Virus record (IMG/VR): IMGVR_UViG_3300045285_000083
Location: 1 to 34,689 of that record
Strand: one strand, 5' to 3'
DNA length: 34,689 nucleotides
Origin: a virus
Lineage: Duplodnaviria; Caudoviricetes
Shown piece after piece: positions 3,838-28,198 of the stretch. Position 1 is the stretch's first letter. Each line of letters begins with the position of its first letter. Below the pieces are notes generated by a model. It saw only the letters and a program-made list of their open reading frames with translations. It did not search any database and was not told where the DNA came from. Position numbers and translations under genes: made by a program.

Positions 3838-4038
3838 ATGGCCATGAGCCTCATATTGCGGGACGCCGTGCAGGAATTCATCGTCCGGATGGAAGACATC
3901 CTGCTGCGGCTGGATGACGCGATCGCCGCAGCCGATGTCGACGCCCAGTCTGCCGCGTTCGAGGCCATCGTCGGCCTGACCGAGATGCTGAAAAGCGCGG
4001 CGGAAAAGCCGACAGTGGAAGACCCTGGGCGGCGATGA
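3838..4038 (+). CDS. Hypothetical protein
   Basis: Acidic helical ORF MAMSLILRDAVQE..; ATGA coupling downstream. Confidence 0.5.
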   Translation: MAMSLILRDAVQEFIVRMEDILLRLDDAIAAADVDAQSAAFEAIVGLTEMLKSAAEKPTVEDPGRR

Positions 4039-4157
4039 ACCAGATCCCGCCGCGTGAGCCGTGGTGGCGCGGCCCGTTCTGGCGGTTCGTGCTGATCGGC
4101 GCAGCCTACATCGCGCTAATGGCGGCGATTGTTTTCATCATGCTGTGGGCGTTCTAA
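4035..4157 (+). CDS. 40-aa single-TM peptide (MNQIPPREPWWRGPFWRFVLIGAAYIALMAAIVFIMLWAF)
   Basis: Read manually (below ORF-track cutoff); ATGA overlap; strong TM. Confidence 0.55.
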   Translation: MNQIPPREPWWRGPFWRFVLIGAAYIALMAAIVFIMLWAF

Positions 4158-4265
4158 GTTTCCGTTATCGTTCAGACGTCTGACGCCACAGAAGAACGCC
4201 ATCACGACAAGGCCGGCCGTGGTGCCGACCAGCCAGCCGGCGAGGAAACCCGCTGCGAATGTCAT
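4116..4265 (-). CDS. Small TM protein (MTFAAGFLAGWLVGTTAGLVVMAFFCG..)
   Basis: ATGA-coupled to upstream minus ORF; overlaps a convergent plus ORF. Confidence 0.35.
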   Translation of the reverse strand: MTFAAGFLAGWLVGTTAGLVVMAFFCGVRRLNDNGNLERPQHDENNRRH

Positions 4266-4468
4266 TGTGATTTGCTCTGGACCCGGCGATTGGTCGCGCG
4301 CAGGAACGCCTCGCGCGACAGACTGCGGTTGTGGCTCTTGATGCACTCGTCATGGACGCCGACCATGTCGATCTTGCCGGTGCAGCGAACCTCGACCGCG
4401 CAATGGTCCGCGTCCTCGAGCGGCTTGTTGCAGAGATAACAATTCCTGGTGGAGGAAATCATGGCCAT
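4262..4468 (-). CDS. Possible small Zn-binding protein (CYLC..HDEC)
   Basis: CxxC and HxxC pattern; start uncertain and collides with the divergent gene at 4461. Confidence 0.35.
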   Translation of the reverse strand: MAMISSTRNCYLCNKPLEDADHCAVEVRCTGKIDMVGVHDECIKSHNRSLSREAFLRATNRRVQSKSQ

Positions 4469-4694
4469 CCTGATCTCGTTTTTGAATCTGTTGTTGTATA
4501 TCGCGATCATTCTGTTCGTCGCCTACGTTATCCTCTGGGTTGTGCGCGACTGGTTCAATATCGCCATCGATGGCAATGTCTTGAAGTTCGCCAAGATCAT
4601 CGTCGGGTTGATCTGCCTGATCGCCATCGTGATCTGGCTCGCTGGCGTGTTGGGAGGTGGCATTGGTTTGCCGCACTTTTTTTCTTACAGGTAA
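4461..4694 (+). CDS. Two-TM small membrane protein
   Basis: GGAGGA RBS at 4451-4456; two hydrophobic helices. Confidence 0.7.
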   Translation: MAILISFLNLLLYIAIILFVAYVILWVVRDWFNIAIDGNVLKFAKIIVGLICLIAIVIWLAGVLGGGIGLPHFFSYR

Positions 4695-4950
4695 ACAATC
4701 ACAGCCATCGCCACCAGCTCCTTGCACAACTCGTCGGCATCTATCCGTTTCGGACTCACTCCCATACGCTCCTCCAGTCTTGCGCGCCGTTTCCGCACCG
4801 CTTGGACATCTGCCCACCACTGAGGGTGAACCACGATCTGCCTCCAAGGCTTTCGGCTGACCACTAACCAGGACTTCGATGGTCATTTAATGGATCACCA
4901 TGCATGCGGTGCGCACCGAGCAGAGGCATGGCAGGCGCAAGCTCTCCTAA

Positions 4951-5247
4951 TCATTTCCCTGTGTCCTTATCGAGCGCGGCGCGGGCAGTTTTCATTGCTT
5001 CATCCAACGCGTAAATTTCACCGCAGCATTTAGGAAGCATTGCACCAAGGCCATATGGATGGCGCTCCTTGTAAGGTTCGTCGCGACCTTCGCCGTTCCA
5101 TCCAGCAACCAGCTTTCGCACGCCAGATAGAGCTTTGGCATTGACCAAATTTAGCAGCGCCGCCTCCAGCGTCTCGATGCGGGCTTTAAGCTTCGCATTG
5201 CGATCTTGTAGTTCTCCAATCAAGCGCAATGGATCTGGGTTAGTCAT
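4951..5247 (-). CDS. Array gene (RIETLEAAL..ARAALDKDTGK)
   Basis: ATG 5247 follows the AAGGAGG inside repeat A. Confidence 0.8.
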   Translation of the reverse strand: MTNPDPLRLIGELQDRNAKLKARIETLEAALLNLVNAKALSGVRKLVAGWNGEGRDEPYKERHPYGLGAMLPKCCGEIYALDEAMKTARAALDKDTGK

Positions 5248-5419
5248 TGCCTGCCTCCTTATCGAGCGCAGCGGCAACGATGCAACGCCAGCCCAGCTTC
5301 AACATATCCATTCGGCTCATGCGCCAGTGAGCCTTCACTTCCGGGTTCAAGTCTGCGATCTCAAGAAAGCCGCCGAGATACATCAACATTCCACCAGCCG
5401 GATGCCAGAATAGAGTCAT
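5240..5419 (-). CDS. Array gene, 59 aa (MTLFWHPAGG..VAAALDKEAGND)
   Basis: Manually translated; starts and ends in repeat A copies. Confidence 0.7.
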   Translation of the reverse strand: MTLFWHPAGGMLMYLGGFLEIADLNPEVKAHWRMSRMDMLKLGWRCIVAAALDKEAGND

Positions 5420-5616
5420 TTCCCAGCCTCCTTATCCAGCGCGGCGCTGGTCATTTGATCATCTCGAATGAGATTTGTATCGATTGCTATCTCACCCTGT
5501 CCTTTGCATTTCCAGCACTCGCGATCATTATACGGATAGGAGAGGTAATGATTTGCGAACCCAGTCCCGAAACATTCCGGACAGATTTGGATTTCAATGC
5601 GTGTTTCCCGGCTCAT
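5416..5616 (-). CDS. Array gene with DnaJ-type Zn-finger motifs (CPECFGTG..CWKCKGQG), ends SAALDKEAGK
   Basis: Two CxxCxGxG motifs. Confidence 0.75.
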   Translation of the reverse strand: MSRETRIEIQICPECFGTGFANHYLSYPYNDRECWKCKGQGEIAIDTNLIRDDQMTSAALDKEAGK

Positions 5617-5893
5617 TCCCCTTATCCAGCGCGGCGCGAGCGGTCAGGCAGGCGCGGGCTTCTTGAAGCCGGGTCGGCATCGGCTCGCCCCTTGTCCGAT
5701 GGTCATGACCAAGCCTGACCATGGCTTTTGCACCAGCCATCACCATCTCGTCGGTGACGATGGTTGCCTCCCGCAGCGCGGCTTGCAGCGCCTCAAGATC
5801 ATCAATAATACAGATCACAGCGCGGTCGTAATCATCCCGATCCGGCTTTGACAATTCGCGGCATCTATCCCGCATGGCTTGGGTTGATTTCAT
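5594..5893 (-). CDS. Array gene (DLEALQAALR..ARAALDKG)
   Basis: ATGA-coupled start at 5893; shortened repeat A. Confidence 0.75.
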   Translation of the reverse strand: MKSTQAMRDRCRELSKPDRDDYDRAVICIIDDLEALQAALREATIVTDEMVMAGAKAMVRLGHDHRTRGEPMPTRLQEARACLTARAALDKGNEPGNTH

Positions 5894-6090
5894 GTTGAAA
5901 ACCATAGTGGCCGTGGCCGACGCCATTCCGAAGCATACTCAGGGCGCACGGCCCCACAGCGACGACAATATTTGACTTGTACGTTACCACCGCCCTCCAA
6001 AATATCGGCAGCCACATGAGCGCTGTCATGCGGACATAAGCGCAACCACCGGTCAATCAGGTAATCGATAAATTTTGCTAGTACTCTCAT
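5890..6090 (-). CDS. Hypothetical protein with CPH..CRRC (possible Zn ribbon), no internal repeat
   Basis: Start supplied by repeat A; ATGA coupling. Confidence 0.7.
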   Translation of the reverse strand: MRVLAKFIDYLIDRWLRLCPHDSAHVAADILEGGGNVQVKYCRRCGAVRPEYASEWRRPRPLWFST

Positions 6091-6368
6091 TGTCCTGCGT
6101 CCTTATCGAGCGCGGCGCTAAGTTCGTCAGCACATCTCAAGTACACATCGTCTACGGAATGATTCTCCGACAGCGTTGCTTCATTCCGCCACGTATCAGG
6201 CAGACTATTAACAGCCGCAAGCGCCGCCTCCAGCGCCTCGATGCGGTTCTGTTGGTCTTCAACTACTTCAGCGAGTGATTGCCTGACAGTGTTTACGACA
6301 TGCGCCAACGATGGGTCGGGTTTTCTTAAAGCCTCGATAGCGCGTTCAGCGCTTTTGCGGTCGCTCAT
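6087..6368 (-). CDS. Array gene (RIEALEAAL..SAALDKDAGQ)
   Basis: ATG 6368 with AAGGA upstream. Confidence 0.8.
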   Translation of the reverse strand: MSDRKSAERAIEALRKPDPSLAHVVNTVRQSLAEVVEDQQNRIEALEAALAAVNSLPDTWRNEATLSENHSVDDVYLRCADELSAALDKDAGQ

Positions 6369-6381
6369 CTCTCTTACGTCC

Positions 6382-6642
6382 TTACAAGCTCCTGATGCGA
6401 AACTCCCAAGCGTCCAGACCTTCACAGAAGGCTATCGGCATGCGCTCATCGAGAGAGCGCGTCCCGTAATTGGTGATCCCGACAGGATTGCCATGTTTAT
6501 CCACGACCATGAGAAGGCAAGTCTCGCCCTCCGTAATAGCCATCAAGACCATCATGTGCCCGGTCTTTGTGCCGTAACGATACACGTTGCCGACACGCAC
6601 TTCACTTGGACATGGAGTTATTGTGTCGAGGACAAATTTCAT
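6382..6642 (-). CDS. Hypothetical protein (MKFVLDT..), no internal repeat
   Basis: Start supplied by repeat A ATGA. Confidence 0.75.
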   Translation of the reverse strand: MKFVLDTITPCPSEVRVGNVYRYGTKTGHMMVLMAITEGETCLLMVVDKHGNPVGITNYGTRSLDERMPIAFCEGLDAWEFRIRSL

Positions 6643-6863
6643 TCGCATGCCTCCTTATCGAGCACGGCGCGGCACTGCTGTTGCGCGTCGGTTATGAGGA
6701 CGGCTAGGTCAAACTCCGTGCGTGCTCCATTCCAGAAAACGTCCAGTGCTGTATTAAGCGCCCGCAGGGCCGCCTCCAGCGCCTCGATGCGGTCGTCTTT
6801 CATCTCCAACATCGCCTCCAATGCCTTGATGCGCGTCCACAAATCATGTTCAGCTTCCATCAT
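6639..6863 (-). CDS. Array gene (RIKALEAM..RIEALEAAL..RAVLDKEACE)
   Basis: ATG 6863 just after the upstream stop; two B-like units. Confidence 0.7.
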   Translation of the reverse strand: MMEAEHDLWTRIKALEAMLEMKDDRIEALEAALRALNTALDVFWNGARTEFDLAVLITDAQQQCRAVLDKEACE

Positions 6864-6871
6864 TTCCGCGA

Positions 6872-7156
6872 TTATGCTCGCCCGGATTGTTCTGGCTGGC
6901 CTTCGAAACGAGCAATCATTTCCTTCATCAGGGTGACCACATCCCTGCGATCCGCACCGTTCGAGATGTAATTGCAACGCGCGTCGCCGTTGGCGAGATT
7001 GCCGAACGGGTACAACATCAAAACAAAGCCGTTTTTGCGGTCCTTGCCCTTCACTTCACCATTCAAGACCTGGTCGAGCGCCTTAGCGATGGCGTTCATC
7101 TTCTCGTAGAACTCGGGCTGAATTGGCGCGTCACCAAGTTGATGTTTGTTTGTCAT
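6872..7156 (-). CDS. Phage hypothetical protein (NGFVLMLYPF..CNYISNGADR)
   Basis: 94-aa ORF with globular composition; start at the end of a repeat A copy. Confidence 0.8.
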   Translation of the reverse strand: MTNKHQLGDAPIQPEFYEKMNAIAKALDQVLNGEVKGKDRKNGFVLMLYPFGNLANGDARCNYISNGADRRDVVTLMKEMIARFEGQPEQSGRA

Positions 7157-7179
7157 TTCCCTACATCCCTAATCCCTAT

Positions 7180-7353
7180 CTAGCGCGGCTCGAGCGCGGC
7201 GCGGGCGATCTCGTACTGTTTTTCAGAGAGTCCAGCCGGGTGATCCATGATCTTCCTCAGCGCCGCCTCCAGCGCCTCGATGCGGGCTTCCAAATCGGCA
7301 ATCCGATCCTGATAGTTTCGAAATTCCATATCTATGTCGGTGTAATCACTCAT
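7180..7353 (-). CDS. Minimal array gene, 57 aa (RIEALEAAL..IARAALEPR)
   Basis: ATG 7353 in repeat A. Confidence 0.75.
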   Translation of the reverse strand: MSDYTDIDMEFRNYQDRIADLEARIEALEAALRKIMDHPAGLSEKQYEIARAALEPR

Positions 7354-7751
7354 TTCCCTGAGTCCTTCTCGAGCGCGGCGCGGGCGATCCACTTAAATTC
7401 ACCTACAATCTCGTCAGTTGTTTCTCCATCTCTCCATAGCCAGTCACGGATGCTAATCAGCGCCGCCTCCAGCGCCTCGATGCGGGCGGCGGCTTCAATA
7501 GCAATAGAGCGCAGGGCCGCTATTTGAGCGTCCATCTGCCGCAACTTTTCGCTCAATGTCCTCCTGAGATTATCGCATTCCGCCTTGGCCGCCGTTAGCT
7601 CAGATGCAAGATCGTTTGTCGGTCGCCCTCGTTCCTGATCCACCACCATCCACACCATCACGCCGCCATCCGTGCAAATCTCGTCGGGGTCAAGGCCACG
7701 TCTGGCGCATTCTTCCCTTGCCTCGATCTCACGCTCCGTCAGGTCGCTCAT
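7350..7751 (-). CDS. Array gene, coiled coil (RIEALEAAL..IARAALEKDSGK)
   Basis: GGAGG upstream, 133 aa. Confidence 0.8.
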   Translation of the reverse strand: MSDLTEREIEAREECARRGLDPDEICTDGGVMVWMVVDQERGRPTNDLASELTAAKAECDNLRRTLSEKLRQMDAQIAALRSIAIEAAARIEALEAALISIRDWLWRDGETTDEIVGEFKWIARAALEKDSGK

Positions 7752-7973
7752 TCACTCATGTCCTCCAAAGGTGACGCCCTCGCCGTGCTTCCATTCGAAA
7801 CAGCAGAAGTCGTCACCGTCCGTGATAGTAACCTTGCGGATGATGCCAAGCTGAGCGGCTGGCCTGTCGGTTAACGACTTGGCCAACTTGACTGCTGCCT
7901 CGGCCCCAATGAAGCGGGCCTCGGGGTAATAGTTACCATCCGGGTCCCACCAGTAGACACTGAACTCATTCAT
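7752..7973 (-). CDS. Phage hypothetical protein (MNEFSVYWWD..)
   Basis: ATGA coupling, AGGA upstream. Confidence 0.75.
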   Translation of the reverse strand: MNEFSVYWWDPDGNYYPEARFIGAEAAVKLAKSLTDRPAAQLGIIRKVTITDGDDFCCFEWKHGEGVTFGGHE

Positions 7974-8386
7974 TTCCTGCATCGCCATGATCTGCCGCCG
8001 CGGATCGCCACCTTGTGCATTCGGTGCCTAGAGCAGACATTGCCCTCCGAATGCGAATGCCGCCTGTGTCGCGCTGCAGGCGGCTTGTCCTCGTCCTGCA
8101 TCACGATCACAGGCGGCACGCCTACCTGCGCATCTGGGGCTGGCGGCGTAATGCGCTCGGTAACTGCGACGTCTGCCACCGTCGCCAGCGGCAGACGATC
8201 TTGCTTCTTCAGCAATGGCTGATCGGCCAAGGTCGCGTCGTCCCAGCGCGCCTGAAACGGGTGAACCGGCTCGGGCTCAGCCATGGCCAGCACTTCCGGC
8301 TGACGCGCCGACAGCGCCGCCACCGCCAGGCCGGACCACAGCAGCACCGCGGCAGGCACTATGGCTCTGGGCGGCGTTATTGCCAT
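7970..8386 (-). CDS. Hypothetical protein with N-terminal signal/TM and basic Cys-containing C-terminus
   Basis: 138-aa ORF in the coupled operon. Confidence 0.65.
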   Translation of the reverse strand: MAITPPRAIVPAAVLLWSGLAVAALSARQPEVLAMAEPEPVHPFQARWDDATLADQPLLKKQDRLPLATVADVAVTERITPPAPDAQVGVPPVIVMQDEDKPPAARHRRHSHSEGNVCSRHRMHKVAIRGGRSWRCRK

Positions 8387-8631
8387 GTCGGCTGCTTGCC
8401 GAGCCGCTGCTCGATGGCCTGCAGGATCGGCCGGAACAGCCGTTTCATATCCTGCAATTTCATCTGGTCGACGGGCGGCGCGTCGCGGTCCAGTTCGTCG
8501 CCGTGCCTGAGCGCATAGTCGACCAGGGCGACGACGTAGAGCAATGCGGCATCCTCGTCCTCGTTGTCGAGCGCGGCTAAACCCTGTTCGGCCAAGACGT
8601 CGAGCAACTTGCAGTGTTCATCCCACGTCAT
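8377..8631 (-). CDS. Hypothetical protein (MTWDEH..)
   Basis: GGAGG RBS, ATGA coupling with the GcrA-like gene. Confidence 0.7.
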   Translation of the reverse strand: MTWDEHCKLLDVLAEQGLAALDNEDEDAALLYVVALVDYALRHGDELDRDAPPVDQMKLQDMKRLFRPILQAIEQRLGKQPTWQ

Positions 8632-9137
8632 GCCGCCGCCCTCCGATCGGGCACATAGGCCATTCGGGTGTGGTGGGCGCAATATGGCCAGCCGTCCGCG
8701 GCGACGGCACCGCAAAACAGCGTAGCGACCTCATTGACATTGCCGAGCGGCCAATGGCAGCGGCTGTCGTCGAGTTCGACGATCAGGCATGGCGCCGTGT
8801 TCAACGCGTCCCAGGCAGGATAGTTCTTCGGCTTGAAGGATGGAGCAGGCGGCGGCGTCGGCATTGTCCTGACTTTCTTCTCTCGCGGCGGCGCCCGCGT
8901 GCTGCGCGTGTTGACCTTGGGCAGGGTGCCCGCGCCTTTCTTCTCGAGGCCGTTCTTTTGCAGGCGATGAACGATCCCCATCACCATGTTGCGGTTGCAC
9001 GGTTCCCGAAACCGGGAACCGACTTCTTCGGAGATGGCGCTGGCGGAATGTGTCGGCCACAGTTCTTGCACGAAGTGCTGCTTTTCGTGGTCCCATTGCA
9101 TTTCAGTTGCCTGGTGCATGGTGGTCAGCCCCATCAT
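8628..9137 (-). CDS. gcrA: GcrA-family cell-cycle regulator homolog
   Basis: N-terminal W..LW...SASAI..RNMVMGIVHRL; C-terminal CHWPLG..FCG..PYCAHH.RMAY; start may be 9137 or 9101. Confidence 0.88.
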   Translation of the reverse strand: MMGLTTMHQATEMQWDHEKQHFVQELWPTHSASAISEEVGSRFREPCNRNMVMGIVHRLQKNGLEKKGAGTLPKVNTRSTRAPPREKKVRTMPTPPPAPSFKPKNYPAWDALNTAPCLIVELDDSRCHWPLGNVNEVATLFCGAVAADGWPYCAHHTRMAYVPDRRAAA

Positions 9138-9138
9138 G

Positions 9139-9243
9139 TTAATTCCAATCCTTGTTGTCGAGCGCGTCCAAATGCGCTTGGACCGCTATGTAAATCAGCG
9201 TTCCGAGTCCGGCCGCGACGATGCCAGCGAGAAGGGCGGTCAT
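9139..9243 (-). CDS. Possible 34-aa TM peptide (MTALLAGIVAAGLGTLIYIAVQAHLDALDNKDWN)
   Basis: Manually translated; stop abuts the GcrA start; no clear RBS. Confidence 0.35.
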   Translation of the reverse strand: MTALLAGIVAAGLGTLIYIAVQAHLDALDNKDWN

Positions 9244-9382
9244 TGTTGAGATCCAAACTGATGTTCAAACGCGGTATTACGTTTGACTTCTAATCGTTCC
9301 AACACAGGTGATTGCAGCAGCGACCATGCCGGTGGTGCCGGCGCCAGCGAATGCAACCTGAGGCCTATTCCAAGCAAATAGT

Positions 9383-9426
9383 CTTATAGTACGTCTCCTA
9401 CACGACAGGCAACAGGAAACATCCGC
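9383..9426 (-). promoter_or_regulatory. PL-like promoter with two operator-like sites
   Basis: Minus strand TTGCCT-N18-TATAAG; TAGTACGTCTCCTA (9387-9400) and CAGGAAACATCCGC (9413-9426) resemble yAGGA-N4-TCCTr. Confidence 0.55.
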
Positions 9427-9478
9427 TAGGTTACAAATATTTTAGGAAAGAGGGGAAGGGAAAAAGAGAAAACGGTAT

Positions 9479-10231
9479 TCAGCGACGGCTGTAGTTGCCG
9501 ACGATGACGTGGCAGGTCATCCATTCGCTGCGCTTCAATGTGGAATCCTTTTTGGGATTATGCTGACGGACATACCAGGTGCTGTCGGTGAAGCGCACGA
9601 GATGTCTGACCTTCGCGATCTCGACACCGTCATTCCTACGACATCTGAATATGCAAGTATCGCCATTGCGCGGTGGCAAATGCGGATTGACCAGAGCGGT
9701 CGAGCCGCTCTTGTGTTCAGGGTCCATGACATCGCCAGACACAAGCATGCCATAAGCCCCGTCCACTCTTGCGAGGAAGTCAGGCATCGTCGCCCAATCC
9801 ACAGGACGGTCGGATAGGATCAGTATTTCATGGTTGGCTTGTGTTGTTCCAAACACCGGTAAATCATAGGATTTTATACTAGAAAGCGACCGCACGTTGT
9901 CCAGAAAATTTTGCTGTTCCGCACCAGAAATAGAAGATTGTGCTACCACACGTGCCTTCTGTGCAATGAGATTCGGTTCTATTAGAGCGTTGTTCGGCTT
10001 GGTGTGACTGCGCGTCGGCAATGCCGACGACGTGCCACGTAATACTTCTTCGGATACACCGATCAAATTCGCCAACGGAATTCGGGATTTTTCCGGAAGT
10101 TCCAGCGGATACCCGCGTTTTAAAAATTGCTGCAGATAGGCATGGTTTTTGCCAATTTTTAGCGACGCCTCGGACATCGTCAGTCCAAGTTCCTGCAATT
10201 TCTCTAGAATCAACTTGCGCACGACATCCAT
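9479..10231 (-). CDS. cI: CI-like repressor, XRE HTH plus S24-like C-terminal domain
   Basis: SLKIGKNHAYLQQFLKRG HTH; YGMLVSGDVMDP..G..ALVNP S24 fold; divergent from cro-like gene. Confidence 0.88.
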   Translation of the reverse strand: MDVVRKLILEKLQELGLTMSEASLKIGKNHAYLQQFLKRGYPLELPEKSRIPLANLIGVSEEVLRGTSSALPTRSHTKPNNALIEPNLIAQKARVVAQSSISGAEQQNFLDNVRSLSSIKSYDLPVFGTTQANHEILILSDRPVDWATMPDFLARVDGAYGMLVSGDVMDPEHKSGSTALVNPHLPPRNGDTCIFRCRRNDGVEIAKVRHLVRFTDSTWYVRQHNPKKDSTLKRSEWMTCHVIVGNYSRR

Positions 10232-10241
10232 TCCTCACTTG

Positions 10242-10317
10242 TAGGAGTATACCTATATTTCTGAAACGAGGGACTATCCTATTGACAATATAGGAAACGT
10301 ATTATTTATTTGAGAAT
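10242..10317. promoter_or_regulatory. OR-like region: three operator-like sites and PR
   Basis: TAGGAGTATACCTA 10242-10255, GAGGGACTATCCTA 10268-10281, TAGGAAACGTATTA 10291-10304; TTGACA 10282-10287 with TTTATT 17 bp later. Confidence 0.7.
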
Positions 10318-10527
10318 ATGCCAAATCCGACCAAAGAACTGTTGGCAGAAATCGAGGCCTTCCTGAAACGCACCGGGATGCCGCCAAGCGCGTTTGGCTG
10401 GGCGACGCTGGGCGACCCCAATCTTGTTCGCACGCTCAAGATGGGCCGTGAGCTGAAATACCGAACCCTGCTGCGTATCAAGAAGTTCATCACCGCGTTC
10501 GAACGTGAGCCCGTCTCTCGCCTTTGA
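10318..10527 (+). CDS. cro: Cro-like small DNA-binding protein
   Basis: LLAEIEAFLKRTGMPPSAFG..LGDPNLV..L..GR; divergent from repressor. Confidence 0.8.
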   Translation: MPNPTKELLAEIEAFLKRTGMPPSAFGWATLGDPNLVRTLKMGRELKYRTLLRIKKFITAFEREPVSRL

Positions 10528-10591
10528 GCGCATCGCTCGCATTCTTGGCGGTCAGGATAGCTCCTGAAATCAAGGGCGGGATCGAGGTGCG

Positions 10592-10816
10592 GTGATGGCG
10601 ATGCGCCGGTTGGCGAGCAAGACCCAGCGAATTGCGCTGTTCATTTTGCATGATGGGAAGTGCGCGATCTGCGGTGAAGAACTGCCCGAACGATTTGAAA
10701 TCGATCACATCAATCCATGGATCAAAAAAGGACGCACCGAACTATGGAACCTGCAGCCGCTATGCCTCGACTGTCATTCAAAAAAAACCTCCGCTCAGGT
10801 CAGCAAGAGGTATTAG
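10592..10816 (+). CDS. HNH endonuclease domain (74 aa)
   Basis: CAICG..EIDHINPW..G.T...NLQPLC..CH..K; GAGG RBS. Confidence 0.88.
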   Translation: MMAMRRLASKTQRIALFILHDGKCAICGEELPERFEIDHINPWIKKGRTELWNLQPLCLDCHSKKTSAQVSKRY

Positions 10817-12588
10817 ACCGGCTGGCGACACACCTCGCTCAACTGAACGTCAAACTGCCGACCGGCTATGGAAAAACGTTCACGTTTTGCGCGGTGTATT
10901 CCACATTGCAAAAAGCTGGCCGCGTTAACCGACTGCTTGTGATTTTTCCCACCGACAAGCAGCTAGACCAATTCCTTTGCGACGCACCAAATGACGATTT
11001 GCCGAAAGCCCTAGTGGATGGGCCGTGGCAGGTGGTCGACATTCGTGATGTTGGTTTGAAGGCGATCAAGGCTCATCGAACGAACGAGCGCCAGATTTTC
11101 GCGACTACCATCCAATCGCTGATCCAAAGGGCCGGCGCCGGCGTCGTCGGCGACCTTCTTCAGACAGGTCAGTGGATGGTGGTCGTCGATGAATACCATC
11201 ACTATGGCACCGACAAGACTTGGGGTCGCGCCGTGCTCGGGCTCAATCGGCAGTTCCTGCTGGTGCTTAGTGCGACGCCACATCGTCCTTATGCTGACGG
11301 CGCTTTTGGGCCGCCCGATGTGGAGGTGACCTATGAATTCGCACAAACCGAAGGTGCGGTTAAGAGACTGCTAGGCCACGCCTATCACTACAGCCTAGAC
11401 GTTGAAAAAGACGGTGAGATCATTCACCTGACCACAGCGGAGTTGATCGCGCAGGCGGGCGGTGCCGAGCCGGATCGGATTGAGAAATTTCGCATCGAGC
11501 GCAAGATGCGATGGTCTCCGAAATTCATTTCGCCGCTTGTCGCCGAGCCGATCGACCGGATGCTTTCGAATCGGATCAGGACCGGATTTCCGCTGCAGGT
11601 GCTAATCGCGGCAATCTGCGTATCTCATGCTGAGTTCGTCTGCGGCCAGGTTCAGGAGATGTATCCAGAACTAGCGGTCGACTGGGTCGGCACCGGCGAT
11701 TTTGGTCGCAGCGACGAGACCAACAAAGAAATTCTCGCAAAATTCTGTCCGGCAAAAAATACTGACGGTGTTCGCGACAATCCGACGCTGGACGTGCTTG
11801 TTCATGTGGGTATGGCCGGCGAGGGTCTTGACTCGATTTTGGTGAGCGAAATTGTCGAACTGGCGCCGGCATCGCTGACAAACTCGGGTAATCAATTGCG
11901 TGGCCGCGCAGCGCGGGTTTTGCGCAAGGATGTCGAGGGTCACATCAATTTCGATGCGTCGAGCGAGTTGGCCATCAAGGGCTATATCGGCGCGAACATT
12001 ATGCGTGCGATGGATGAATTGATCCCGGTAGAGACACCGCCGGAGCCGCCAAAGCCAGACGATGATTTTCCGCCAGAGCCGCCAGCGCAGCCGGAAATTC
12101 AGTTGCTCGATATGAAGTTTGAAGGTGTCGATCATGGTGACGCGACCGTGCAGTCGGTTTTCAGGTTCAGGGAATGGCGCGAACCGAATGCCTATCAGTG
12201 GGAGAACATGAGGGCCGATCACGGTCACGCCGACTGGTCGTCGTTCATGGATGATTTTCATGCATTCCGCGCCAGGGAAGCTGAACTGTTCAATGACAAG
12301 GCGACGCTGGCGCAATCGATGAACAACGTCAAACTGCTGCTTCGCGAAACCGTCGGCATCGTGATTAAAAAGATGCGTGCGCGCGGCAACATGGTTGACC
12401 AGACGGTCGCCGGGATGATCAAGCACCGGATCAACGCCAGAAAGCGGCGGCTGATCGGAGAACTGAACAAGGACAATCGGGATATCGAGGCTGCGAAGGC
12501 CCATTACGCTTGGCTTCGGCAACTCAATCTGTCGCTCCGAAACGAGGAAATCCCGCAATGGCTGTTCGTGTCGACTCGGGACCAGTAA
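10762..12588 (+). CDS. SF2 DExH helicase (ResIII-like)
   Basis: LPTGYGKT, VVVDEYHH, LSATP, QLRGRAARV; start uncertain (see frameshift finding). Confidence 0.88.
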   Translation: MPRLSFKKNLRSGQQEVLDRLATHLAQLNVKLPTGYGKTFTFCAVYSTLQKAGRVNRLLVIFPTDKQLDQFLCDAPNDDLPKALVDGPWQVVDIRDVGLKAIKAHRTNERQIFATTIQSLIQRAGAGVVGDLLQTGQWMVVVDEYHHYGTDKTWGRAVLGLNRQFLLVLSATPHRPYADGAFGPPDVEVTYEFAQTEGAVKRLLGHAYHYSLDVEKDGEIIHLTTAELIAQAGGAEPDRIEKFRIERKMRWSPKFISPLVAEPIDRMLSNRIRTGFPLQVLIAAICVSHAEFVCGQVQEMYPELAVDWVGTGDFGRSDETNKEILAKFCPAKNTDGVRDNPTLDVLVHVGMAGEGLDSILVSEIVELAPASLTNSGNQLRGRAARVLRKDVEGHINFDASSELAIKGYIGANIMRAMDELIPVETPPEPPKPDDDFPPEPPAQPEIQLLDMKFEGVDHGDATVQSVFRFREWREPNAYQWENMRADHGHADWSSFMDDFHAFRAREAELFNDKATLAQSMNNVKLLLRETVGIVIKKMRARGNMVDQTVAGMIKHRINARKRRLIGELNKDNRDIEAAKAHYAWLRQLNLSLRNEEIPQWLFVSTRDQ

Positions 12589-13169
12589 ACGCAACTGATC
12601 GACTGGAAACGGTGCCGCGCGAAAAGTGGCACGATTTGATGTGTACGCGCGCCGCCTTTCTGGCAGTCAAACTCTCTTATGATTGCCGATGCCTGGTTGA
12701 GTTCGTGGCCGATGCCGAAGCGATGTATTCGGAGCTCGGCTACGAGTCTGCCGAGGCGATGATACGCGAGGGCTATCGTCTCGAGCCGGAAGAAATCAAC
12801 ATCGCGGTCGAGTGGTTGAAACTCAATCCGCCGGACGAGCCGCTGCCGCTCGACCAGGCGGTGAAGCTCGGCAGGCGCGGGCGTCCGAAATGGATCGAAC
12901 AAGTTGGTTCCGAAAAACCTTGTAATACAAGGTTAAAGTACGGGACGGCTGATTACTGGCTCGCCCGGCTCGATCGTGATGGCCTCGAGGAACTCGCCGC
13001 CAAGGTTCGCAGCAAAAAATTGTCGGCCAATGCGGCAGCGGAAAAGGCCGGCTACCGCAAAAGACCGACACCACTGCAAATCATCCTGAAACAATTGCCA
13101 AAGCTGACGGAAGAGGAGTGCAGTTACTTGCGCGAACTGCTCGACCGGCAACATTCGGAAGCCGCATGA
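12558..13169 (+). CDS. Hypothetical DNA-binding-like protein (GRP..GT..YWLARLDRD..LSANAAA..AG)
   Basis: GAGGA RBS before ATG 12558; overlaps the helicase end. Confidence 0.7.
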   Translation: MAVRVDSGPVNATDRLETVPREKWHDLMCTRAAFLAVKLSYDCRCLVEFVADAEAMYSELGYESAEAMIREGYRLEPEEINIAVEWLKLNPPDEPLPLDQAVKLGRRGRPKWIEQVGSEKPCNTRLKYGTADYWLARLDRDGLEELAAKVRSKKLSANAAAEKAGYRKRPTPLQIILKQLPKLTEEECSYLRELLDRQHSEAA

Positions 13170-13282: not shown

Positions 13283-13591
13283 GTGAGCAGATACCCGCTC
13301 TGTCCGTGCTGCAAACAGCCCTTGCCGGCGCAAAAACGTGGCGGCGTTTATCTGCCGCCAAAGAAGGCGCAGATCTTCGATGTCATCGATCGCAAACCGG
13401 GCATTACCACGCTGGGCATCATCGCCAAATGCTACAGCGGCAACGGCACCGCCAATGCGGTTCGCGTTCACGTCACGCAGATCAACTGCCTGTTAATGGA
13501 AAGCGGCGTCCACATTCGCATCAGTGGTGACGGCACGGACCTGCGTGGCCATTATCGCATCGTCCGGCAGCAGGTGAGGGAGGTGGCATGA
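13283..13591 (+). CDS. Winged-helix (OmpR C-terminal-like) protein with N-terminal CPCC
   Basis: NAVRVHVTQIN..L..G..YRI pattern; AAGGA RBS, GTG start. Confidence 0.7.
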   Translation: MSRYPLCPCCKQPLPAQKRGGVYLPPKKAQIFDVIDRKPGITTLGIIAKCYSGNGTANAVRVHVTQINCLLMESGVHIRISGDGTDLRGHYRIVRQQVREVA

Positions 13592-14343
13592 TGGACGAAA
13601 ACCCCCAGAAGGTTTCCGTGATGCCGCCGGACGATTTGCCAGTGCCCACCGTGACGCCGCTCGACATGCTGAACCGGGCGGTGCTCGCCGGCGCCGACAT
13701 CGCCATGATCGAAAAGCTGATGGCACTGCATGAACGCTGGGATGCCAACCAGGCGCGCAAGGCGTACGACAACGCTATGGCGGCGGCCAAAGCTGAGATT
13801 CCGAACATCAGCAAAAACCGCGAGGTTGATTTCATCTCGCCGAAGGGCCGCACCCACTACAGACACGAAGACCTGGGCGAGATCGCAAAAGCGGTGAACC
13901 CGGTGCTCGCCCGCCACGGTCTGTTCTACCGATTCCGCACCACCTCGCCGGTTAACGAGCCGATCACGGTGACTTGCGTGGTGTCGCACCGCGACGGCCA
14001 TTTCGAGGAAAACACGCTGTGCGCCGGCCGCGACGACTCGGGCAACAAAAATGCGATCCAGGCGATAGGCTCGACGGTGACCTATTTGCAGCGGATGACG
14101 CTAAAAGCAGCACTCGGACTGGCGGCAAGCAACGACGACGACGGCAAGGCGGCGGGCGACGGGGAAAAGATCACGGAACAACAGGCCCAGGAAATTGCAG
14201 ACAAGTGCGCGGCTGTTGCGGACGGATTCGATACGTCGTTTTGCAACTACTTCGGCATAGACAAAATCTCCGACCTTCCGGTGAAAGACTATCAACGCGC
14301 GATCATTGCGATCGGCAAGAAGAAGGGAACGACTGCGAAATGA
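13588..14343 (+). CDS. erf: ERF-family single-strand annealing recombinase
   Basis: AQ/AKAEIP.I.K, P.LARHGL, QAIGSTVTYLQRMTLKAALGLA..DDDG. Confidence 0.9.
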   Translation: MMDENPQKVSVMPPDDLPVPTVTPLDMLNRAVLAGADIAMIEKLMALHERWDANQARKAYDNAMAAAKAEIPNISKNREVDFISPKGRTHYRHEDLGEIAKAVNPVLARHGLFYRFRTTSPVNEPITVTCVVSHRDGHFEENTLCAGRDDSGNKNAIQAIGSTVTYLQRMTLKAALGLAASNDDDGKAAGDGEKITEQQAQEIADKCAAVADGFDTSFCNYFGIDKISDLPVKDYQRAIIAIGKKKGTTAK

Positions 14344-14978
14344 CTGACATCGTTCAGGGGTCAGCCGAATGGCACCAAATCCGTTTAGGCAAGGCGACGG
14401 CCTCCCGTGTTGCCGACGTGGTGGCGCGCACCAAGAGCGGATATGGCGCAAGCCGCGCCAACTACATGGCGCAACTGATTGCCGAGCGGCTGACGGGCGT
14501 GCCGGCCGAGAGCTACATCAACGCGGCCATGCAGCACGGGACGGACACCGAGCCGGAAGCCAGATTCGCCTATGAGTTCTACCAGGGCGTCACCGTCGAG
14601 CAGGTGGCGTTTGTGCATCACCCCAGGTTCGGGGATGGCGCCGGTTGTTCGCCTGACGGCTTCGTCGGCACCGATGGCCTCGTGGAAATCAAATGCCCAA
14701 ATACCGCAACGCACCTGGACACTCTGCTCGGCCAAGCCATGCCTGGCAAATACGAATCGCAGATCCAGTTCCAACTCGCATGCACTGGACGGCAATGGTG
14801 CGATTTCGTTTCCTACGATCCTCGGATGCCTGAGAGTATGCGCCTGTTTGTGATGCGGATCGAGCGCGACGACAGGCGCATTGCCGAACTGGAAACCGAG
14901 GTGGTGAGTTTCCTCAATGAACTTGACGAAAAGATTATGCAGCTCAACAGCCTCTATGGCGAGAAAGCGGCCGCCTAA
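14340..14978 (+). CDS. YqaJ/lambda-exonuclease family protein
   Basis: QGSAEW...RLGKATAS, HG...EPEAR, CSPDG, VEIKCP, QIQFQL..CDFVSYDPR. Confidence 0.93.
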   Translation: MTDIVQGSAEWHQIRLGKATASRVADVVARTKSGYGASRANYMAQLIAERLTGVPAESYINAAMQHGTDTEPEARFAYEFYQGVTVEQVAFVHHPRFGDGAGCSPDGFVGTDGLVEIKCPNTATHLDTLLGQAMPGKYESQIQFQLACTGRQWCDFVSYDPRMPESMRLFVMRIERDDRRIAELETEVVSFLNELDEKIMQLNSLYGEKAAA

Positions 14979-20903: not shown

Positions 20904-21019
20904 CCGGGGGGGGCATCTCGAAAAATTCGCGCCGGGGGAGCAGGAACCGCATGCGGCGTTTTTTGCACGCGCTAAGTGGAACTCACTAGGATGCACGCGC
21001 TAAGGGAACTCCATTAGGA
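20904..21019. other. Putative cos/packaging region with a 28-bp tandem repeat
   Basis: G8 run at 20906-20913 right after the HNH; TGCACGCGCTAAG..GGAACT..TAGGA at 20964-20991 and 20992-21019. Confidence 0.55.
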
Positions 21020-25071: not shown

Positions 25072-26489
25072 ATCCACTTTCCGTATTGGCTGCGCTGGTC
25101 CCCTGGCGCACCAAAACCAATCCGGCCGGCGAGGGCAATCCCCACGCCGGCCCGTATAATATCCTGGGTCAGGGCTGGCTGCCCGATGCCTGGGGTCGCA
25201 ATGCCAATTTCTGGCAGATGGATTACGATCCATTGCCGGGACCCTCGTCCTCGATCGTCGAAGCTTGTGTCTGGGCCTATGCCCGCGCCATTGCGCAACT
25301 GCCGGGCTACCACAAGCGCGATACCGGGGACGGCGGCAACGAGATTGTCACGACATCGGCGCTGTCGCGGCTGTTGCGGACGCCGAACAATTATATGACA
25401 TCGAGCGATTTCCTGGTGCATTTGATTCGATCATTACTGCTGACCGGGAATTCTTATTGGGTCGCGGAACGTAATTCCCGCAGCGAGGTCACGGCGCTGC
25501 ACTGGACTGATCCGCGACAATGCCACCCGGTTCAAGTGCTGGTGGAAGGCCAGACCTTTCGCGAGGTGTTTTACCAGATCGGGTTTAATCCGCTGACCGG
25601 CCTGTTTGACCGCGGCAGTCTGGCGATTCCGGCGCGGGATGTATTTCACATCAGACTGGCGACGCCGCGGCATCCTTTGATTGGCGAAACCTGGCTGGCA
25701 TCGCTTCGGAACGAACAGGCAACCCGCGGCGCGATCATGACGACCTCTGCGGCCCTCACTTCCAATATGAGCCGACCGTCCGGCGTGCTCACCAGCGACA
25801 GGGAATTATCCGGCACCCAGATTCAGGAATTGCGCGCCAAGTGGAACGAGCAGGCGGTCGGGTTGAATTCCGGCGGCGTGCCGATCCTTGGCTGGGGCCT
25901 GAAATTCCAGCCGCTGTCGGTCTCGAACGCGGACGCGCAAACTATCGACATGTTGAAGCTGACCGACCGGTCGATTGCAGCGGTGTTCGGCGTTCCGATG
26001 ATTCTGCTTGGCGTCAACGATACCGCTACGCAGAAGTCGAGCGAAGCCATCATGGCGGAATGGCTCGCGGCCGGCCTCGGTTGGCTCATCAACCATATCG
26101 AAGTCAGTACGGATGCCTTCATCGGCCTGAACGATGTAACCGCGGGCCGGGAATGGACCGAATACGACACCAGGGCGCTGCTACGGAGTGCATTCAAGGA
26201 TCGGATCGAGGGCCTCGCCAGGGGCGTTCAGGGGACGGTGTATTCGCCGAACGAAGCGCGTGCTCTGGAAGGATTGTCGGCGGCCAAGGAGGGCGGCGAG
26301 CCGCGCGCGCAAGCGCAATTGGTGCCATTGTCGGCGGCCGCGGGTCTGCCTGCAATGCCGGCAGCGGCGCCGTCTGCACCATCAGCGCCGACGACGGCCA
26401 ATGATAATGCCGCGGCACAATCGCCGGAAGAGCAGAAGGCGTATGCGGCATTTTTGCTGGAGAGAGCAATGAGCCATGCCGCTGGATGA
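25068..26489 (+). CDS. Portal protein (HK97 family)
   Basis: LLRTPNNYMT, LLLTGNSY, RPSGVL, IAAVFGVP..LLG, SPNEARALEGL. Confidence 0.95.
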   Translation: MNPLSVLAALVPWRTKTNPAGEGNPHAGPYNILGQGWLPDAWGRNANFWQMDYDPLPGPSSSIVEACVWAYARAIAQLPGYHKRDTGDGGNEIVTTSALSRLLRTPNNYMTSSDFLVHLIRSLLLTGNSYWVAERNSRSEVTALHWTDPRQCHPVQVLVEGQTFREVFYQIGFNPLTGLFDRGSLAIPARDVFHIRLATPRHPLIGETWLASLRNEQATRGAIMTTSAALTSNMSRPSGVLTSDRELSGTQIQELRAKWNEQAVGLNSGGVPILGWGLKFQPLSVSNADAQTIDMLKLTDRSIAAVFGVPMILLGVNDTATQKSSEAIMAEWLAAGLGWLINHIEVSTDAFIGLNDVTAGREWTEYDTRALLRSAFKDRIEGLARGVQGTVYSPNEARALEGLSAAKEGGEPRAQAQLVPLSAAAGLPAMPAAAPSAPSAPTTANDNAAAQSPEEQKAYAAFLLERAMSHAAG

Positions 26490-27183
26490 CAGAGCGATTA
26501 TCGCCGCGGTCGGCGAGGTGCTGGCGCAAGAGCGGGCGCAGCGATTGACGCTCGAGGCTAAGATTGAACAGTTGGCTACCCTGCTGCGTCAACCGGGACC
26601 GGAAGGGAAACAGGGCGATCAGGGCCAACCTGGCCGGGACGGATCGGTCGGCGAATGTGGCGAGACCGGCCCGCAGGGGCCACCAGGGCCGAGCGGAGAA
26701 GTAGGCCGCGATGGTCGCGACGGATTGCCCGGCCTGCTGGGACCGACCGGCGAGCGCGGTGAGCGAGGCCCAGCCGGCGAACAGGGCCCAGAAGGCCCTG
26801 CGGGGCCGACCGGTAGCGTCGGCGAGAAAGGCGGCCCCGGCGACCCTGCTTATCCTGGCCGCGCCTGCGGGCTTTGGTGTGAGGCTGAGATATATCGGGC
26901 GATGGACGTGGTTACGTCTAACGGCTCCGAGTGGCGCGCGGTGACGGACGATCCCGGCCCATTGCCGGGCGACGGCTGGGTGTTGGGGGCCAAGGGCAAC
27001 CGCGGCAAGCCAGGCGAAAGGGGTGCAAAAGGTGAGAAAGGCGAGCGAGGGCCAGCCGGATTGTCGGTCGTCAGGGCTGACATGGTTGGATTCGAACTGG
27101 TGTTGACGCTTTCGGATGAAACCCGGCTGGTCTGCAATATGCTGGGGGCGTTCGAGCGCTATCACCGCGAGGCCGTGGCATGA
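26476..27183 (+). CDS. Collagen-like (Gly-X-Y) protein with an inserted small aromatic beta module
   Basis: Long G-X-Y run; Y...DVV..NGSEW.A..D.PG..PG..W insert. Confidence 0.8.
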   Translation: MPLDDRAIIAAVGEVLAQERAQRLTLEAKIEQLATLLRQPGPEGKQGDQGQPGRDGSVGECGETGPQGPPGPSGEVGRDGRDGLPGLLGPTGERGERGPAGEQGPEGPAGPTGSVGEKGGPGDPAYPGRACGLWCEAEIYRAMDVVTSNGSEWRAVTDDPGPLPGDGWVLGAKGNRGKPGERGAKGEKGERGPAGLSVVRADMVGFELVLTLSDETRLVCNMLGAFERYHREAVA

Positions 27184-27836: not shown

Positions 27837-28198
27837 TTCCAGCCGACTACAATCTTAACATTTACCGCGGCGACACTAGCCGCTGGCAAATCAAACTATG
27901 GGCCGACAAGGACAAAACGCAACGTGCTGACCTGACCGGCGTCACGGTCGAAGCCACGCTGCGCGGCAAGGCGGGCGATAATTTTGCCATGCCGCTGGGT
28001 TGCACCGTCACCGAGGCGAACATCATCGAGATGGTGTTGACATCGGGCCAAAGCCGCGACCTGCCGGCCAGAGGTGGGTGGGACTTGAAACTGACCTATC
28101 CCAGCGGAGATGTCGCCACGGTGCTGATAGGATCGTATTGCGCGATGCAAGCGACATCGCTCGATCCCGCAAGAAAAAAACTGGCGGCTGTCAAATGA
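27833..28198 (+). CDS. Ig-like fibre-attachment/structural protein
   Basis: L.IYRGDT, DLTG..V.A.LR, WDLKLT. Confidence 0.65.

Follow-up and report, generated by a model that had tools for sequence, protein, structure and literature searches.

A row of short phage genes jointed by two coding repeats and its probable origin in short-homology recombination

Genes and repeats of the array

The IMG/VR virus record IMGVR_UViG_3300045285_000083, analyzed over its full length of 34,689 nucleotides (nt) and referred to below as the window, holds at positions 4951 to 7751 an array of eleven minus-strand genes encoding proteins of 57 to 133 amino acids (aa). The array lies downstream of a gcrA-like gene in a leftward gene run, and its genes are punctuated by two short DNA repeats, A and B, which are the subject of this report. 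The original prediction for this locus, made from the letters of the window alone, described the genes as mostly translationally coupled. The eleven minus-strand genes are present and seven of their ten junctions overlap (five by 4 nt, as ATGA, and two by 8 and 23 nt); the description does not extend to the other three, which are gaps of 8 to 23 nt.

Repeat A encodes the last residues of a gene (ARAALDKxxGK) and runs on into a purine-rich tract and ATGA, supplying a ribosome site and the ATGA start for the next gene. The eight predicted copies were confirmed, all on the minus strand: 7350-7385 (ARAALEKDSGK, stop, ATGA); a partial copy at 7189-7212, followed by a decayed, noncoding A tail (7153-7212 together); 6639-6674; 6087-6122; 5606-5641, with an altered tail; 5416-5451, which is polymorphic among near-identical strains; 5243-5278; and 4951-4986, the last. 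An additional remnant of the A tail lies out of frame between genes 5 and 6 (6365-6384, minus strand). Repeat B encodes RIEALEAAL, in frame, in the middle of genes. Its five near-identical copies (7458-7487, 7258-7287, 6765-6794, 6219-6248, and 5155-5184, minus strand) were likewise confirmed and are joined by two decayed ones (6810-6833 and 5768-5800, minus strand), the second of which is still the exchange point of gene 8. As predicted, the copies at 7258-7287 and 7458-7487 are identical over 30 of 30 nt, the copy at 5155-5184 agrees at 29 of 30, and a 24-nt core is exact in four copies; with the core placed one base downstream, three are exact. The commonest 16-mer occurred four times, compared with at most once in 200 shuffles.

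All eleven genes are on the minus strand and are numbered from the upstream end. Gene 1 (133 aa, 7350-7751) is made up of an N-half, B, a C-half, and A, the halves being the segments on either side of B. Gene 2 (57 aa, 7180-7353) has the same plan with the partial A, and its C-half recurs with two other N-halves (L048:4851-5024 and P0118). Gene 3 (94 aa, 6872-7156; phrog_35296) has no internal repeat and is located after an A copy in contigs L011, L082, and L083. Mycobacteriophages have homologues of gene 3 with 53 to 56% identity, and a Paracoccus phage has a weaker one; its relatives also follow the upstream anchor gene described below in the array-free phages L123, L125, and L140. Gene 4 (74 aa, 6639-6863) contains the decayed B, a B, a C-half, and A. 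Gene 5 (86 aa, 6382-6642), with no internal repeat, moves together with the N-half of gene 6 as a single A-to-B block (90% identical in L011/L012), and this same N-half bears a different C-half in L012; gene 6 itself (93 aa, 6087-6368) consists of an N-half, B, a C-half, and A. The Cys-containing gene 7 (66 aa, 5890-6090) has no repeat, and gene 8 (99 aa, 5594-5893) is composed of an N-half, the decayed B, a C-half, and the altered A. Genes 9 (66 aa, 5416-5616, with a CxxC zinc-finger-like motif) and 10 (59 aa, 5240-5419) end in A, and gene 11 (98 aa, 4951-5247) again has an N-half, B, a C-half, and A.

The sequences between the repeats (fillers) had been described as unrelated from unit to unit. 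For filler DNA this stands, since none of 206 filler-filler matches fell inside the window (six were within a contig). It is not fully true of the gene frame, because an LVERLR-like protein motif is found in 67 of 203 N-halves; a motif before A is found in 118 of 203 proteins, and the genes with B inside and A at the end (B..A genes) have the look of a weak protein family.

Distribution of the array and assortment of its parts

Pattern scans yielded 12, 33, 10, 24, and 37 stretches from IMG/VR and 5 from JGI metagenomes, which were merged into 66 contigs; the set of 60 contigs used here includes the window and leaves out eight near duplicates and L085, which has no called site. These 60 contigs contain 149 A and 150 B sites, and shuffled sequence gave no match at the same threshold. 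Arrays on the two repeats occur in about 60 distinct soil-phage contigs with at least two capsid types. A repeat-blind search was made through the upstream anchor gene (7970-8386, minus strand), which lies outside the array and is common to array-bearing and array-free relatives. It recovered 28 loci, of which 10 had A/B arrays within the fetched flank (two of them new) and 18 had none, and the array is therefore optional. Repeat A comes in two DNA dialects (AALDKDAGK and AALAPEQDK) with a common purine-rich tail that is read in different frames, and all 32 contigs with at least two typed A copies used a single dialect. Shared fillers numbered 25 within dialects (median, 88%) and 3 between dialects (74 to 78%). 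In 13 genomes read whole, the strong sites form one cluster per genome, the exceptions being three isolated weak B matches, and the cluster shared by the most genomes is that of the B..A proteins (11 of 13). Since the capsid of nine of these 13 is Mx8-related, a different family from that of the window, the array evidently crosses phage lineages. No match to the array was obtained by blastn against 50,697 GenBank phages, and tblastn of one B..A protein, also meant to find cultured relatives, gave a single weak match (E 0.4). In GTDB genomes, the A pattern had no match and the B pattern one, a lone copy on an Actinosynnema contig with no array.

The locus had been predicted to show homology breakpoints at the repeats when related arrays are aligned. 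Alignments between contigs had 360 ends, 82 of which extend to a repeat in both partners; 78 of the 82 stop there (40 at B and 38 at A) and four go on; the remainder are internal, at a repeat in one partner only, or cut by the flank (41 ends). Graded by identity, breaks fell within the repeat for 49 of 52 pair-ends (≥80%) and 26 of 27 (≥90%), against an expected chance of 0.36 in which every internal and one-sided end is counted as a true break. The same-contig pair L092/L023 was left out of this test, and its P values overstate the case because the pairs are not independent. With the repeats removed, 236 inner fillers fell into 220 clusters.

Collinear, fixed arrays were looked for and are not what was found. 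The window and L011 share flanks on both sides and, within the array, three common blocks only, in permuted order; one of these blocks begins at A, runs unbroken across the boundary of genes 5 and 6, and stops at B. Gene 8 combines an N-half as in an L003 gene with a C-half as in an L012 gene, the switch lying inside B; it is a natural chimera, and both of its halves occur with other partners elsewhere. Across L018, L030, and L040, a single gene occurs in three forms, one lacking any insert and two carrying distinct in-frame inserts, each placed between B copies. A copies have also enclosed entire genes, among them those for a DNA methyltransferase and an HNH-like protein; in L012, the methyltransferase and HNH/AP2-like genes (4037-4582 and 7026-7250) end in repeat A, and ordinary phage genes have, to judge by these cases, acquired this joint.

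The assortment of halves was analyzed in B..A proteins. A profile of 40 of them recovered at least 1778 clusters at 90% identity (7989 candidates scored), and the family comprises 3620 representatives at 50% identity. From 370 proteins in hand, we used the 263 with B, an A-like end, and both halves of at least 12 aa. Their 203 N clusters and 198 C clusters occur in 257 combinations. Where N-halves were at least 80% identical (80 pairs), the C-half was shared in 6 pairs and the C-halves were less than 40% identical in 71. More than one partner was found for 37 of 40 recurrent N-halves and for 42 of 46 recurrent C-halves. Furthermore, four genes (L076:6073-6273, P0017, P0176, and P0158) present all combinations of two N-halves and two C-halves; this four-gamete set was found by inspection, the automated count having given no cycle with the start of P0158 mis-called. 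In a linkage control, for which 125 of 174 single-B proteins were long enough, pairs that matched in the 8 residues beside B also matched over the adjoining 8 of that half in 18 of 18 and 32 of 33 cases, but across B in just 3 of 18 and 3 of 33. As to known families, 13 of 145 array proteins matched PHROG at E ≤ 1e-4, scattered among them, none of 40 B..A proteins rose above the Pfam cutoff, and a fold search gave no match at E ≤ 0.001.

The reading frame is largely maintained. Fillers from B to A are multiples of three in 96 of 99 cases, and stop and start overlap at 129 of the 149 A sites. The pN/pS of shared halves was 0.26 (9 independent N pairs) and 0.14 (7 independent C pairs), so the halves are under purifying selection. 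Codon use was counted in 55 B copies on 23 contigs that had been found by other means than B; the consensus codon stood at 358 of 428 conserved B residues, compared with 148 to 207 expected, and protein constraint therefore cannot explain the B DNA.

Variants at strain level were found among the runs holding the stretch, all 16 of which are listed as soil metagenomes. Four of the 16 have half or more of its words, and junctions were taken from assembled contigs of four runs (X1 to X4). Loose contig ends at repeats were excluded as evidence, being trivial for contigs that match solely through a repeat. In one X3 contig (depth 6.6, with 2 other letters in 457), position 6087 is followed directly by 5415; genes 7 to 9 are missing from it, and A copies bound the gap on either side. 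The A copy at 5416 departs from the window at 6 places in 17 nt in X1, X2, and X4, and 5 of these match the copy at 6087; a 1,985-nt X1 piece shows 12 differences from the window in total. The pattern looks like an exchange of a patch within the repeat. From X4, one contig shares just 7243-7385 with the window, which is an A-to-B block, and its flanks differ.

A probable mechanism and its alternatives

We propose that the array strings together short genes whose interchangeable halves are joined at two coding repeats of 24 to 33 nt and vary in combination and order among soil phages, with generic short-homology recombination as the likely cause, and we regard this explanation as probable. A crossover between A copies would add, drop, or reorder whole genes with expression intact, and one between B copies would fuse the first part of a gene with the last part of a different one, or add or remove an in-frame segment. 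Such crossovers could occur between co-infecting phages, prophages, or copies within one array and would use whichever annealase or RecA is present; the same traffic would homogenize the repeats. The idea that the repeats act as in-frame crossover points, part of the original prediction, is strongly supported by the homology breaks at A and B, the noncollinear order, and the reassortment of halves at B; its mechanism is one that we infer. What sets these sequences apart is the pairing of a gene-end joint with a mid-gene joint and the way in which halves assort almost freely, across phage lineages, within a family numbering thousands. Repeats A and B or a two-joint coding array were not found described in the literature searched, which largely excluded subscription papers and supplements.

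As to the engine, 18 complete repeat-bearing genomes contained no ERF, YqaJ, or Rad52, one RecT, two AAA_24, and two Enc34-type single-stranded-DNA-binding proteins (SSBs), and a tyrosine integrase (PF00589) was present in two of them. ERF was found in 4 of 34 records, all partial, and YqaJ in 5 of 27; no recombinase common to the 13 whole genomes was found. No dedicated enzyme thus travels with the array, and generic short-homology recombination, not an enzyme of integron type, is the likely engine given the absence of ERF and YqaJ from all 18 and the presence of an integrase in just two. The exact repeat cores of 24 to 30 nt match the minimal pairing length of Red-beta (23 to 27 bp) and are below or just at that of RecA (31 to 34), as given in the accessible part of the source (PMC3945230). 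A 264-aa protein of L175 (3637-4428, plus strand; phrog_9528, labeled nucleotidyltransferase) occurs in five array-bearing genomes without a recognized annealase and may be a candidate single-stranded-DNA-binding or annealing protein.

What the products might do was approached by modeling. AlphaFold predicted for gene 2 a long helix (residues 2-36), a loop, and a short helix (44-54), with a pLDDT of 87. The homodimer was modeled as a parallel coiled coil whose core contains the B residues I25, L28, and L32 and in which the A helix packs against the other chain; contacts agree by at least 65% between runs, with a pLDDT of at least 78. The dimer score was 0.56, compared with 0.00 for the best control; 20 of 30 solved homodimers attained the mark, as did 1 of 23 single chains. 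This score is model confidence alone, and coiled coils are easy to model. The modeling supports, and does not show, a coiled-coil dimer scaffold formed by B and A. On this model, two B helices would pair as a parallel coiled coil, with the A helix folded back onto the dimer, and the constant B-plus-A scaffold would keep chimeras folded and display the variable segments. Because of their position in the early leftward gene run, the array products likely act on host proteins. It is conceivable, although we hold it only tentatively, that the arrays are an evolved combinatorial display library of unrelated soil phages, in which N- and C-terminal segments by the thousand can be exchanged on a constant B-plus-A coiled-coil scaffold, the joints stay identical in DNA since reshuffling is favored, heterodimers are possible, and renewable binders are produced against host defense or regulatory proteins. 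If the scaffold reading is true, the arrays are a large untapped source of phage proteins acting on alphaproteobacterial hosts.

Several points weigh against this explanation. Alignment ends not at a repeat in both partners make up 237 of the 360 (154 internal and 83 one-sided); many lie in flanks, weak matches, or decayed copies, and some are true breaks elsewhere. Gene 8 starts without an A, and X1 and X2 part from the window at 5303, where the nearest A lies 28 nt away. The pairs counted are not independent of one another, and most contigs were found via the repeats. The collection merges proteins more than 90% alike, which hides unchanged pairs, although 99 of 120 listed clusters are single-member. 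The A-A deletion is known from one contig of one run; no recombination event or rate was observed, and no circle junction was present in contigs, which cannot reveal rare forms. None of the five annealase and SSB families searched was found in 13 of the 18 complete genomes, although distant members could escape such a search, and the repeats do not exceed the minimum length for RecA.

A different route would be structure- or site-specific recombination, in which B and A pair as a single-strand hairpin around the filler and are recognized, attC-like, by a phage or host enzyme. The second half of B (7258-7287) is reverse-complementary to the first half of A (7189-7212 / 4951-4986) with one bulged base, so that each B-filler-A unit could fold into a hairpin as mRNA or single-stranded DNA, with a B:A duplex of about -20 kcal/mol. 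Pairing was weakly above recoded controls: P was 0.003 to 0.006 against synonymous recoding with filler codon usage and 0.05 to 0.06 with core-gene usage, expected B:A pairs were 11.7 compared with 6.1 with B recoded, and 6 pairs were reached in 35 compared with 24 of 52 units. Such a route would account for the fixed silent sites and for arrays in phages without a recognized annealase. However, there was no covariation; A differs between dialects while B does not, so there is no compensation; and one consensus amounts to one draw, in which GC-rich Ala codons pair easily. Breaks also occur at both A and B, including in A-A and B-B units that have no partner, and the search for an enzyme gave an integrase in two of the 18 complete genomes, no shared candidate, and no Rfam match. 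We consider the hairpin route quite improbable.

The original prediction named the ERF annealase and YqaJ exonuclease of this phage as the recombination machinery. Both are encoded (PF04404 and PF09588 matches), they recur in four to five partial array-bearing contigs that include two long arrays, and the accessible text of PMC3945230 describes an Erf/Exo pair that recombines diverged DNA as well as Red does. The pair may serve the array in this phage. A tie to arrays did not hold up: neither gene is found in any of the 18 complete records, the closest long array (G001) lacks both, and the cultured Bradyrhizobium phage ppBjS10J-1 (OP596615.1), with two ERF genes and YqaJ, has no array. As a general rule the ERF/YqaJ engine is refuted, and as the dedicated engine in this phage it is very improbable. 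In ppBjS10J-1, the two ERF-family genes stand in tandem (L187 35178-36864).

Short-homology exchange between halves was also set against descent without exchange, in which a single small coiled-coil family gave rise to the genes as tandem paralogs, mutation made their loops diverge, and the repeats are only conserved protein motifs. That one profile gathers the whole B..A family, that residual motifs persist in N-halves and before A, and that the predicted dimer core uses invariant B residues all fit this view, and B..A genes do form one loose protein family. However, near-identical halves with unrelated partners, the four-gamete set, the collapse of linkage exactly at B, and the fixed silent sites do not, and A also ends unrelated genes (the methyltransferase and HNH-like genes). 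The four-gamete set and linkage control refute paralogy unless they are assembly artifacts, which makes it extremely doubtful, and diverged paralogy, which had been named as the outcome that would overturn the prediction, was not borne out as such. Protein conservation probably explains why the repeats arose and persist, and not the mosaic pattern. That the mosaic is an assembly artifact, different phages having been joined through the 24- to 33-nt repeats, has a next to negligible probability: all sequences are metagenome assemblies and Logan contigs break at B copies (pieces ending at 7287 and 7461), but an independent X1 assembly repeats the window order from 5303 to 7287 across several repeats, identical arrays occur in separate contigs (L002/L007, L017/L108, and L009/L010), and the silent changes that distinguish swapped halves show that these halves do not stem from a single molecule.

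For the linker model of modular evolution in phages, the arrays are natural evidence of unusual clarity, and they extend the model below the gene level, with new small proteins assembled in frame from half-genes. They are a possible explanation of the abundant one-off small ORFans in soil viromes, in that most listed clusters are single-member (99 of 120) while the halves recur. At 2.8 kb, the array is small enough to clone.

Comparison with known systems

The comparisons that follow rest on the accessible portions of the cited papers. In T4-type phages, the PeSLs (promoter-early stem-loops) are short repeats among small nonessential genes of a variable region that act as homologous-recombination points; they are intergenic promoter-terminator motifs, move whole genes, and form mini-circles, with no dedicated recombinase identified (Arbiol et al. 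2010, PMC2839356; Comeau et al. 2014, PMC4122927). The array resembles them in that the repeats are points of gain, loss, and replacement that keep the expression context, again with no dedicated recombinase identified, and its indels and replacements map to repeats, as is asked of PeSLs. It differs in that both joints are coding, expression proceeds via the stop/start overlap, and B splits genes so that halves reassort. Moreover, PeSL mini-circles have been demonstrated, whereas the array is known from assembled contigs with one deletion junction and no circle junction, and its hosts are not T4-type phages but 35- to 85-kb soil phages with HK97-like or Mx8-like capsids. A search for sigma70-like promoters gave 4 sites in 4200-10700, compared with 3.8 expected, and none in a repeat, although alphaproteobacterial promoters may be missed; there was no terminator-like site on the minus strand, and A and B are translated, not intergenic. 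We therefore rejected the array as PeSL cassettes, as it has neither promoter nor terminator and its joints are coding.

Linker or boundary sequences of lambdoid modules were reportedly treated by Clark et al. in 2001 for phage HK620. In the modular theory of lambdoid phages (Botstein/Campbell), such sequences stand at module borders (PMC2839356). Like them, the repeats are short conserved border sequences that steer exchange to viable positions; lambdoid linkers, as far as the available text goes, have their own sequence at each boundary and large modules, whereas here two motifs reach up to 17 copies per locus with modules of 30 to 400 nt. The Ea22/Ead proteins of the lambdoid exo-xis region are accessory proteins from early operons; they combine a coiled coil with a repertoire of unrelated C-terminal parts and share a terminal motif (PMC7093339). 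An effect on the lysis-lysogeny decision is another mark of the Ead/Ea22 group. The array proteins are Ea22-like in plan, with a predicted coiled coil, a variable C-terminal part, and a shared terminal motif. A phage has a single Ea22 gene, whose N-terminal part varies rather little, whereas the array has many genes in which both halves vary and the joints are fixed in DNA. Membership in Ead/Ea22 (PF13935) was rejected, with 0 of 11 window genes and 0 of 40 B..A proteins matching at E ≤ 0.01; a language-model atlas gave Ea22 as a subthreshold lead alone (0.79).

Integron cassette arrays are composed of short variable genes separated by repeats and undergo gain, loss, and reordering. The array shares these traits. 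It differs in having neither an integron integrase nor any other recombinase in common, and in its coding repeats and intragenic exchange, with half-genes reassorting instead of whole-gene cassettes. As a mechanism, the integron likeness drawn in the original prediction failed, a tyrosine integrase being present in 2 of 18 complete genomes and no recombinase being common to the 13. No attC-like site was indicated by an Rfam match (no attC model was run), and A and B are by inspection not palindromes but partly complementary to each other. Integrons are also set against PeSLs in PMC2839356. Rad52-like phage annealases carry out relaxed homologous recombination, exchanging via 23 to 27 bp of exact identity, and Erf/Exo is active (PMC3945230). 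Such recombination explains general mosaicism; the array is built on repeats, and most complete array phages have no recognizable annealase.

The surrounding phage

The window represents a temperate phage with a repressor, a tyrosine integrase, ERF, YqaJ, and a GcrA homologue; its head genes (terminase, portal, and protease-capsid fusion) are HK97-like. GcrA is an alphaproteobacterial cell-cycle regulator. The GcrA-like gene (8628-9137, minus strand; PF07750, E 8e-21) lies upstream of the array in the same leftward run, and a similar gcrA gene is present in 6 of the 13 genomes read whole. Since the best match of ERF is in a Bradyrhizobium phage, the two genes point to an alphaproteobacterial host. 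The genes for ERF (PF04404, E 9e-22) and YqaJ (PF09588, E 5e-25) are at 13588-14978 on the plus strand; they may act on the local repeats and have no tie to arrays. The integrase is 8 kb from the array, amid ordinary temperate-phage genes.

Between a cro-like gene and erf lie an HNH nuclease, a 623-aa ResIII/DEAD helicase, and a 219-aa protein with no assigned function (10592-13169, plus strand), a trio that looks like inserted cargo or a defense module. Secreted-looking proteins in related phages (L125 9231-9953, L140 7528-8349, L144 6007-6510, and L168 9484-10176) end in a sorting-signal-like VPLPA/PGL..GL..L...RRR tail, which is unusual for phages and which we take to be PEP-CTERM/VPLPA-CTERM-like. 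In the window, two tandem 28-nt copies stand directly upstream of the large terminase gene (20964-21019), and genes with collagen-like (Gly-X-Y) repeats are located at 26476-27183 and 28000-29961, in the head and tail region.

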